From a virus (Duplodnaviria > Heunggongvirae > Uroviricota > Caudoviricetes), in IMG/VR virus record IMGVR_UViG_2654587772_000002: DNA of 64,000 nt. The stretch is one strand, 5' to 3'. The translations under genes were made by a program, and so were the position numbers. A model generated the notes under the pieces. That model saw only the letters and a list, made by a program, of their open reading frames with translations. It was not told where the DNA came from and searched no databases. How positions within the stretch are numbered: the stretch's first letter is position 1; every line of letters starts with the position of its first letter. Below, in pieces: positions 8,441-8,966 of the stretch.

Positions 8441-8518
8441 ACAACAGGTAAGGGCGCTGGTTCGATTAACCAGATGAGCGAGAAGGGGCCATCTTTTTGG
8501 TCAGCGTCCTTACCTGTT
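8441..8518. repeat. Palindromic element ACAACAGGTAAGGG...CCTTACCTGTT with T-arm-like core (GGTTCGATT); copy 1
   Basis: 10-bp terminal inverted repeat; tRNA-like TpsiC motif inside; second copy at 8881. Confidence 0.45.
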
Positions 8519-8724
8519 ACGTCCTTTTTCATTCGGCGTAACAGCAATTGCTTTTAGCAATTTAGGAATAACGTCTTGCTACGGGTATATCCCGTCATGC
8601 TGAAGGCGCTAATCACGCTGGAAGCCAGGGTTATGCATCCCCTGTTACCGAATTGCAGCCAGGGCGCGGTGCGCCGAAAAGCATACGGAGGTGGAAGCCC
8701 TCGCCGGAGACGTACCCGGCAAGT

Positions 8725-8800
8725 GATGGTGTAGCTCAGCGGTTAGAGCGGTTGACTGTTAATCAACGGGTCGATGGTTCAAATCCATCCACCATCGCCA
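8725..8800 (+). tRNA. tRNA-Asn (anticodon GTT)
   Basis: 76 nt, 7-bp acceptor stem, anticodon loop CTGTTAA, T-loop TTCAAAT, CCA end. Confidence 0.9.
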
Positions 8801-8802
8801 AT

Positions 8803-8878
8803 GCCGGTTTAGCTCAGTTGGTAGAGCGCCTGCCTTGTAAGCAGGATGTCAGCGGTTCGAGTCCGTTAATCGGCACCA
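8803..8878 (+). tRNA. tRNA-Thr (anticodon TGT)
   Basis: 76 nt cloverleaf, anticodon loop CTTGTAA, T-loop TTCGAGT, CCA end. Confidence 0.9.
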
Positions 8879-8880
8879 GC

Positions 8881-8966
8881 ACAACAGGTAAGGGTATTTT
8901 GCGACGTCGGAGATCGCCGAGCTTGGCAGAGGGTTCGAATCCCTACGAAGTACCCTTACCGTTGTG
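8881..8966. repeat. Palindromic element ACAACAGGTAAGGG...TACCCTTACCGTTGTG with GGTTCGAATCC core; copy 2
   Basis: About 15-bp terminal inverted repeat around canonical T-loop sequence; immediately 3' of tRNA-Thr. Confidence 0.45.

Follow-up and report, generated by a model that had tools for sequence, protein, structure and literature searches.

Two hairpins in the ban operon leader of a P1-like phage as members of a modular hairpin family shared with phage lambda

Long imperfect RNase III duplexes that stand between stable RNAs or messenger RNAs (mRNAs) of one transcript are known from the ribosomal RNA operons, the early RNA of phage T7, the tRNA cluster of phage T4 and DicF in the dicB operon, and the late leader of phage lambda, between the terminator tR' and gene S, carries a stem-loop. 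Here we describe two palindromic elements, E1 and E2, in a 64,000-nucleotide (nt) stretch of DNA from a virus of the Caudoviricetes (IMG/VR record IMGVR_UViG_2654587772_000002), called the window below. The window comes from a P1-like phage (Punavirus), and its positions 8000-10600 are 90-98% identical, in mosaic blocks, to P1, P7, SJ46, RCS47, JL22 and D6. We found that E1 and E2 are almost certainly two copies of a modular hairpin family, in which a conserved basal stem (the frame) carries an interchangeable apical segment (the payload), and that the lambda stem-loop has the same frame. These hairpins are ordinary in kind, namely structured, processing-type elements in a phage leader.

The lambda hairpin (CACAACAGGTAAGAGCATTG...CAGTGCTCTTTCCGTTGTG, lambda positions 44,787-44,862) starts six bases past the U-tract of tR', and neither lambda record annotates it. 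It shares with E1 and E2 the frame sequence, the bulged A and a place in an untranslated leader just past a terminator, and its GUUGUG strand is likewise re-used by the closing helix of the next module. The arms of E2 and lambda are identical at 15-17 of 19-20 nt, and the differences are mostly compensatory (A-U to G-C, C-G to U-A). In contrast, the lambda payload is unrelated to those of E1 and E2, a U.U mismatch stands where the window has a U-A pair, and the lambda hairpin lies in a Q-antiterminated late operon with no adjacent tRNA gene rather than in a C1-repressed early operon. Compared with the RNase III stems, cleavage is predicted here, and the frame sequence is conserved far beyond the known needs of an RNase III site. 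The P1 leader also opens with a DicF-like region, as a further likeness to the dicB operon. Lambda orf-64 (44,621-44,815; locus L313 822-1016) runs across 6S RNA, tR' and the frame's 5' arm, which casts doubt on its being a coding gene.

A preliminary description of the region had reported two palindromic elements with a shared start and mutually complementary ends, and we confirmed their positions, start and ends (Table 1). E1 and E2 have a common 16-nt 5' arm and complementary 3' arms. This 16-mer (GCACAACAGGTAAGGG) is present in exactly two copies in the window, at 8439 and 8879; the chance expectation for a 14-mer is about 0.0005. As plus-strand RNA, E1 folds with -39.2 kcal/mol and E2 with -41.6 kcal/mol, and none of 200 shuffled sequences was as stable in either case. 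The stem of E1 pairs 17 nt with one G.U, and that of E2 consists of CACAAC/GUUGUG, a bulged A, GGUAAGGGUA/UACCCUUACC and 7 further pairs. A duplex of about two helical turns is therefore present in both E1 (17 base pairs, bp) and E2 (6 + 17 bp with one bulge). No U-tract of an intrinsic terminator follows either hairpin. Rfam scans, run on the whole region, on E1 and E2 individually and on seven lambdoid loci, assigned neither element to a family. Specifically, the STnc100 model (RF02076) did not match E1 or E2, and its only match in the region (9549-9669, 37.8 bits) is below the gathering threshold of 47.

The frame consensus is CACAAC-A-GG-U-AAGRGCAUU...ARUGCUCUU(U/A)CC-GUUGUG, a stem of about 17-20 bp with a bulged A and one position that is a U.U mismatch in most phages and U-A in the P1 type. 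E1, E2 and the lambda hairpin all carry the two arms by which we recognized the family (5' arm CACAAC-A-GGUAAGRG..., 3' arm ...CYCUU(U/A)CC-GUUGUG). Two runs of a stem-only scan of viral contigs (ACAGGTAAG...CTTTCCGTTGTGG) gave about 200 further loci, mostly in contigs of 40-50 kb. In total, we identified 209 distinct hairpins, whose payloads fall into about 80 unrelated clusters. They come from lambdoid, P1-like and Uetakevirus phages, and the family reaches well beyond the P1-like group. Relatives of P1 also put other interiors into the same stem, called "type C" (P7, RCS47, JL22) and "type D" (P1). The frame hairpins sit in untranslated leaders, co-oriented with flanking tRNA or small RNA (sRNA) modules, and frames start at, or 1 nt past, a tRNA CCA end. 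Every copy is in a leader of this kind, and the rest of the window has none. The specific tie to the tRNA-Asn/Thr pair that had been drawn at first does not hold, because the same stem is present in the lambda late leader and in many phages without a nearby tRNA gene.

We aligned 69 representatives of the family, one per payload cluster (alignment A2). The frame cells are paired in 91.5% of cases compared to 84.7% in shuffles, with double-sided changes in nine pairs; parts of the arms are fixed by the search patterns, and covariation counts only for the free columns. The inner eight frame pairs covary freely (for example GCCAAAUCG/CGAUUUGGC and GCUGC/GCAGC), and the outer pairs vary solely from C to U or from A to G, giving U.G or G.U. 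The U.U mismatch is retained in 66 of the 69 sequences and a U.G wobble in 52, and the bulged A is retained as well. Furthermore, in 75 of 81 hairpins the plus strand folds more stably than its complement, and for the payload cores alone the counts are 55 vs 23 (p = 4e-5). This asymmetry indicates selection on the plus-strand RNA, not on a DNA cruciform or a symmetric protein site. Taken together, family membership and RNA-level selection appear close to certain, and the initial suggestion of small structured RNAs is supported by the covarying stems and by G.U wobbles that fall on the tRNA-sense strand only.

Sequence identity is 0.86-0.90 in the arms, 0.49 in the payloads and about 0.6 in the flanks (80 nt on each side), a contrast between arms and flanks that is inflated by nine and thirteen positions fixed by the search patterns. 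Since the flanks are about as diverse as the payloads, the frame is an island of conservation. A hypervariable insert in a constant locus was rejected on the same comparison. We propose that the frame is the functional, conserved part of each hairpin. Its 3' arm includes an 8-mer (window 9533-9541, UGCUCUUAC; lambda about 44,847-44,854, UGCUCUUU) that we take to equal the boxA core of the rrn operons and lambda nut, probably by coincidence. We rejected a boxA reading of the arm (UGCUCUUU/UGCUCUUA), which is base-paired and loses the motif where the inner stem covaries (GCAGCUUUCC, UUGCCUUUCC); it is a coincidence, or a lead at most.

The preliminary description had also placed T-loop cores in both elements, and this was correct for E2 and not for E1. 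The motif in E1 (GGTTCGATT, 8459-8467) has no closing stem and is restricted to the window/SJ46 lineage. We found E1 in 20 phage records, all P1-like or D6, and among its 16 variants GGTGTGATT is the reading of most P1-type phages and GGTGGGATT that of one. In Klebsiella phage pJN2-26, E1 is a short version with just CTGGTTAACCAG at its centre. Judging from these variants, the "T-loop" of E1 is a lineage-specific coincidence and E1 is not tRNA-like. The wobble of its stem moves from one pair to another among the variants (GGGCGCUG/CAGCGUCC vs CAGUGCCC), which is how an RNA stem behaves.

The payload of E2, in contrast, has a canonical T-arm around the motif GGTTCGAATCC (8932-8942) and a D-arm-like hairpin. 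No anticodon arm can be drawn, and there is no CCA end. As first described, neither element is a canonical cloverleaf: ARAGORN called no tRNA in E1 or E2 and found only Asn, Thr, Ser and Met(CAU), and the Rfam tRNA model (RF00005, threshold 29 bits) did not match either isolated element even at E <= 10. In a 90-nt Rfam search, E2 alone matched mascRNA-menRNA (RF01684; 14.9 bits, E = 0.64) and tRNA-Sec (RF01852; 14.6 bits, E = 0.94), a resemblance only, as the gathering thresholds of 42.5 and 47 bits were not reached. E2 is similar to tRNA-like RNAs such as mascRNA/MEN-beta, the YrlA Y RNA domain and the tmRNA (transfer-messenger RNA) domain in having a T-arm and a GG-bearing, D-loop-like hairpin on an acceptor-like helix. 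It differs from them in lacking an anticodon arm or a helix that replaces it, in lacking CCA and in scoring far below every family threshold. Specifically, the long stem of YrlA leaves from the anticodon position, whereas the further stem of about 16 bp in E2 extends the acceptor-like helix. We presume that the E2 payload can also be likened to species 1 and 2, two stable RNAs from the tRNA cluster of T4.

E2 is found across phage groups. Its interior pattern (GACGTCGGAGATCGC...GGGTTCGAATCCCT) matched 100 stretches in viral-contig DNA, and E2 is present in 463 of 5,426 complete E. coli genomes, nearly always on P1-type plasmids and with no annotation over it. A scan of species-representative genomes with the D/T pattern gave one genuine match (Escherichia sp.) and three apparently chance ones, adding no diversity. 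Enterobacter phage BUCT554 (Uetakevirus) carries E2 in a locus of which the examined 6 kb contain no tRNA gene. In lambdoid-type contigs, E2 is located between a Q gene with the late promoter and terminator and the holin gene, and one E2 locus is directly upstream of a bona fide STnc100 (109.7 bits).

The long stem of E2 shows compensatory changes in 10 of 21 pairs, with 96% of cells paired (alignment A1). This covariation score was reached by none of 500 shuffles, and no slid register came close. The acceptor-like segment occurs as UAUUUUG/CGAAGUA, CAUUGCG/CGCAGUG and CAUUGGG/CCCAGUG, a wholly different stem is present at locus L087, and copies found via the stem alone added a fourth compensatory state, CAUUGAG/CUCAUUG (GAG/CUC). 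The 17-nt D-arm-like hairpin and the 15-nt T-arm are invariant in all homologues found through the D/T pattern, an invariance that is partly ascertainment for that very reason, and the frame-only homologues differ by just one D-loop base. The putative tRNA-like fold of E2 is drawn from its motifs and not from covariation within E2. We propose that the E2 payload is a tRNA-derived module, with a T-arm and a D-arm-like hairpin and no anticodon, which selection seems to have kept in several phage groups.

To place the hairpins in the genome, we used the P1 record, in which the order is the end of dmt, the C1-controlled Pban (operator Op72), a "dicF-like region", tRNA-Asn, tRNA-Thr, tciABC, tRNA-Ile2 and ban. 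By this comparison, E1 and E2 sit in the mostly untranslated leader, about 2.7 kb long, of the presumably C1-repressed ban operon. Its order in the window is Pban, a DicF-like sRNA with its terminator, E1, tRNA-Asn, tRNA-Thr, E2, E3, tRNA-Ser, E4, tciABC, tRNA-Ile2 and ban. E3 and E4 are hairpins of the same kind as E1 and E2, lie just downstream of them and had been missed before. Transcription of the leader is taken from the annotation of P1 and lambda, and Pban is presumed to start the transcript that carries E1-E4 and the tRNAs. The two elements had been said to flank the tRNA-Asn/Thr pair; this is apt for E2, which follows tRNA-Thr almost immediately, and only loosely so for E1, which ends 205 nt upstream of tRNA-Asn.

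Furthermore, the hairpins are linked to their downstream neighbours by complementarity. The 3' arm together with the next bases (GUUGUG-GUG, GUUGUG-AUG, GUUGCG-GUG) can pair with a segment that contains CACAAC and lies 40-120 nt downstream, and in this X-X'-X'' arrangement the extension covaries with its partner across loci (GUG/CAC, AUG/CAU, GCGGUG/CACCGC). All four hairpins of the window follow this rule, with CCUGUUACG matching CGUAACAG for E1, GUUGUGA..AGC matching GCUUCACAAC for E2, UUGUGGUG matching CACCACAA for E3 and UUGCGGUG matching CACCGCAA for E4. The module that follows, often STnc100/PasD-like, is closed by this downstream helix, and the frame and the next module thus share one strand. 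What usually follows a frame hairpin is GGUGAAUGCG..., with which such a module begins. The STnc100/PasD prophage sRNAs are neighbours of the frame hairpins in the same arrays, and they differ from them in ending in an intrinsic terminator and binding Hfq, with E1 and E2 falling outside the STnc100 model.

The reading that we favour, to which we give about an even chance, is that the frame would be a processing site for double-stranded RNA, most likely cut by host RNase III, and a folding insulator in a polycistronic precursor. It corresponds to the processing signals among the first suggestions for E1 and E2. Several features point indirectly to processing: the length and architecture of the stem, its homology to the lambda leader hairpin, its position at the 3' ends of tRNAs and at boundaries between modules, and the strand that it shares with the next module. 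Stems as long as that of the frame are typical of RNase III substrates. In vivo, the lambda late leader reportedly contains sites processed by RNase III (Daniels, Subbarao, Blattner and Lozeron, Virology, 1988), and DicF in the homologous dicB operon is reported to be matured by RNase III/E. Cleavage of the frame would split an sRNA/tRNA/mRNA precursor into its units. A cut in E2 would leave tRNA-Thr with a short 3' trailer that exonucleases could trim, and would make the GUUGUG strand available for the closing helix of the next module. The payload would leave as a by-product or as a small RNA.

Several points weigh against this reading. The processing role is putative, and the RNase III sites of the 1988 lambda study may lie outside 44,787-44,862. 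The loose sequence needs of RNase III leave the near-identical arms of about 20 nt unexplained, and a specific protein might instead bind at the conserved U.U mismatch, bulged A and U.G wobble. Neither of the K-12 cryptic prophages DLP12 and Qin has the frame, and for this reason the published RNase III maps of K-12 are silent on it. For the interior of E2, RNAalifold favours the pairing UCGGA/UUCGA over the D-arm/T-arm fold, and covariation cannot choose between the two because those columns never vary. The E2 payload itself could be a retained tRNA-like small RNA (a decoy, a stabilizing elbow or a substrate of tRNA enzymes) or a well-preserved passenger.

An alternative to the processing site is that the payload is the point, with the frames as scaffolds that present small RNAs. 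E2 would then give a stable, anticodon-less tRNA-elbow RNA that binds, titrates or is modified by tRNA-recognizing host or defence proteins, or serves as a decoy. We consider this unlikely on balance, and the evidence is divided. Across three phage groups, the covarying stem contrasts with D and T arms that do not vary, the weak Rfam matches of E2 are to tRNA-like families, and the literature describes the neighbouring STnc100/PasD modules as sRNAs bound by Hfq. Moreover, a UUCRANY loop closed by a stem of at least 4 bp was found in 8 of 79 payload clusters compared to 0.06 in shuffles, with none on the reverse strand, and the T-arm stems differ between clusters (AGGG, GCGG, AGAG, CAGG, GUGGG). 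The T-arm is thus a real, repeated feature of a minority of payloads including E2, and not of the whole family. Against the small-RNA role, about 90% of the payloads have no T-arm, and payload structure is weak (mean z = -0.45). The longest stretch of complementarity to a payload averages 8.3 nt in the +/-6 kb around it and 8.4 nt in other loci, giving no sign of antisense targets there. E2 has no CCA end, accumulation of a payload RNA is an assumption, and E2 cannot mimic the targets of anticodon nucleases because it has no anticodon arm.

The hairpins also mark where the leaders of P1 relatives gain and lose modules. After tRNA-Thr, we found E2 alone in the window, P1, SJ46 and D6, E2 with type C in RCS47 and JL22, and type C alone in P7, with the junctions in the arms. 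The tRNA-Ser(UGA) module (9208-9534) is present in the window, P7 and D6 and not in P1, SJ46 or RCS47. Direct repeats of 25 nt, containing hairpin 3' arms, stand on its two sides (9184-9208 and 9537-9561). In phage Ro157c2YLVW, an additional tRNA-Tyr separates tRNA-Asn from tRNA-Thr, and rV5-like lytic phages have the same tRNA-Ser and E4 payload within a different stem. Tandem frames are direct repeats, so unequal recombination between frames explains these module states. We propose that the frames would provide portable homology for the gain and loss of tRNA and sRNA modules. The idea of tRNA gene turnover in the preliminary description therefore survives in part: the indel breakpoints among P1 relatives do fall at the hairpins, whereas a scar without function is disfavoured by the conserved arms.

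Such breakpoints would also be expected if the hairpins were inverted-repeat recombination sites at the DNA level, similar to integron attC sites or miniature transposons, exchanging cassettes without any RNA role. The conserved arms in diverse contexts and the same modules in unrelated phage types agree with this. Integron attC sites are likewise imperfect palindromes with conserved ends, variable centres and extra-helical bases that bound exchangeable modules. We nevertheless regard a purely DNA-level role as very unlikely. The wobbles are RNA-type and specific to one strand, which is also the strand that folds better in 75 of 81 hairpins, and the mismatch and bulge are conserved rather than erased. 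The core sites of attC follow RYYYAAC and GTTRRRY. CACAAC/GTTGTG does not fit these cores, since both GCACAAC and GTTGTGA depart from them in one or two bases, and attC was rejected. A miniature inverted-repeat transposable element was also rejected, as no target-site duplication is visible at the ends (GG|CACAAC...GTTACG|TC; AG|CACAAC...GTTGTG|AG). Judged from general biology, no common recombinase is identified for these phage groups.

It is equally hard to credit that the elements are decaying tRNA genes or recombination scars without function, with a hairpin look created by template-switch repair of quasi-palindromes. E2 does resemble a tRNA minus its anticodon arm, the leader region gains and loses tRNA genes, and rV5-like phages have an unannotated aberrant tRNA-like sequence in the equivalent array. 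However, a scar would not be expected to preserve 40 nt of D and T arms in P1-like, lambdoid and Uetakevirus phages whose stems covary. No tRNA feature is conserved in E1, the frame mostly encloses payloads that do not resemble a tRNA, and template switching would erase the conserved mismatch, bulge and wobbles. Finally, a generic structure that shields the long leader from Rho-dependent termination or RNase E without specific cleavage would suit a leader of about 2.7 kb that consists almost entirely of tRNAs and stable hairpins, with no convincing open reading frame (ORF) before ban apart from tciABC (protein family searches on the overlapping ORFs found nothing), and is improbable because any stable hairpin would do, leaving the frame sequence, mismatch, bulge and exact placement at tRNA 3' ends unexplained.

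The processing site remains the reading that we prefer for the frame, and the features of the surrounding leader are collected in Table 1.

Table 1. Features of the ban operon leader in the window
Feature	Position	Strand	Remarks
Pban promoters and C1 operator Op72	8023-8068	+	coordinates moved from the P1 annotation by alignment offset
Terminator-like site	8232-8258		end of the DicF-like segment; the only such site within 7900-10900
E1, frame hairpin	8440-8520	+	stem 8443-8459 with 8502-8518; z = -6.0; payload P1-like-specific, not tRNA-like
tRNA-Asn(GUU)	8725-8800	+	ARAGORN, Rfam
tRNA-Thr(UGU)	8803-8878	+	ARAGORN, Rfam
E2, frame hairpin with tRNA-like payload	8880-8966	+	starts 1 nt past the tRNA-Thr CCA; z = -5.9
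D-arm-like hairpin in E2	8901-8917	+	GCGA / CGUCGGAGA / UCGC; fold inferred from motif
T-arm in E2	8930-8944	+	AGGG / UUCGAAU / CCCU
Short module after E2	8961-9018	+	closing helix GUUGUGA..AGC / GCUUCACAAC re-uses GUUGUG of the E2 3' arm; read from sequence
E3, long hairpin with variant frame	9103-9202	+	CAACGUUGAGAAC.../...GUUCUCAACAUUGUG; z = -6.5
STnc100/PasD-like module	9197-9349		
tRNA-Ser	9353-9439		ARAGORN, Rfam
E4, long hairpin with variant frame	9438-9555	+	starts at the tRNA-Ser 3' end; z = -5.8; payload homologous to lambda 44,866-44,934
STnc100/PasD-like module	9549-9669		
tRNA-Met/Ile2(CAU)	10403-10478		ARAGORN, Rfam

The DicF-like region (about 8163-8264) closes with the only intrinsic terminator of the leader, and everything past it, ban included, would require read-through. 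Just past it, the segment 8270-8330 (GTTAGCGACTTTGCGG..TTTAGAAACTGACC..AAATGCAAACGATGA) is kept in lambdoid late leaders, where it lies between two frame hairpins. Weak Rfam matches at 8222-8390 to permuted tmRNA (24.1 bits, E = 0.05) and beta-tmRNA (E = 0.25) are probably due to chance, since ARAGORN reports no tmRNA.

The two STnc100/PasD-like modules of the window have the form GGUGAAUGCG ... GGGAGGCACCCGGCACC with the closing helix UGYGGUG/CACCRCA. The dicF-dicB spacer of the E. coli K-12 Qin prophage (locus L115, about 2040-2190) is another such module. Modules of this type lie directly upstream of tRNA-Ser, tciA and dicB, a placement which suggests an element of the 5' untranslated region as much as a free sRNA. 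In Escherichia phage FFH2 (rV5-like; locus L317, about 2583-2690), an unannotated aberrant tRNA-like sequence lies between tRNA-Ser and tRNA-Thr. Its acceptor is GCUAGGU/ACCUAGC and its T-arm GGUGG/UUCGAUU/CCAUC, and it also has an anticodon-like loop of 5 nt and a variable region of great length. In one lambdoid contig (L096, about 10640-11150, reverse complement), we identified by eye, from the nucleotide sequence, an ORF resembling an HNH/AP2-type homing endonuclease between the Q region and the first frame hairpin.

On the minus strand, the P1 record has the gene plp ("putative lipoprotein"; locus L001 2345-2722), which corresponds to 8849-9139 of the window and is antisense to E2, E3 and the T-arm of tRNA-Thr. 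It has a TTG start, its product ends ...DSNPLPSS...TDSNR, and the N-terminal 29 residues are not kept in the window. We rejected plp as a protein-coding gene, as it has no Pfam or NCBIfam match and its ORF is the antisense of hairpins and a tRNA. It is probably not a real gene, and its neighbour upl may raise the same doubt.

What deserves attention is that a single stem, carrying dozens of different tops, recurs in lambda, P1 and numerous further phages, and that one widespread top is an apparent anticodon-less tRNA mimic. The hairpin is unannotated in the P1 and lambda records and has no Rfam family, although both genomes are among the best annotated. The shared stem offers a handle on how leaders with tRNAs and Hfq-binding sRNAs (STnc100/PasD, DicF-like) may be cut into units, and it would explain the easy movement of tRNA and sRNA modules between unrelated phages. 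If the frame is merely an RNase III site, the result is a tidy gain in annotation; if the payloads are effectors, they would form a new class of phage small RNAs. As a speculation that we hold to be distinctly unlikely, temperate enterobacterial phages (lambdoid, P1-like and epsilon15-like) may share a platform for the display of small RNAs that resembles primary microRNAs, in which a near-invariant stem would be recognized by a host factor (RNase III or another protein binding double-stranded RNA) to free interchangeable RNAs of about 40-90 nt, one of them an anticodon-less tRNA mimic acting on tRNA-recognizing host or anti-phage proteins. If this were true, the frame would be a portable expression cassette for RNAs used in conflicts between phage and host or between phages.

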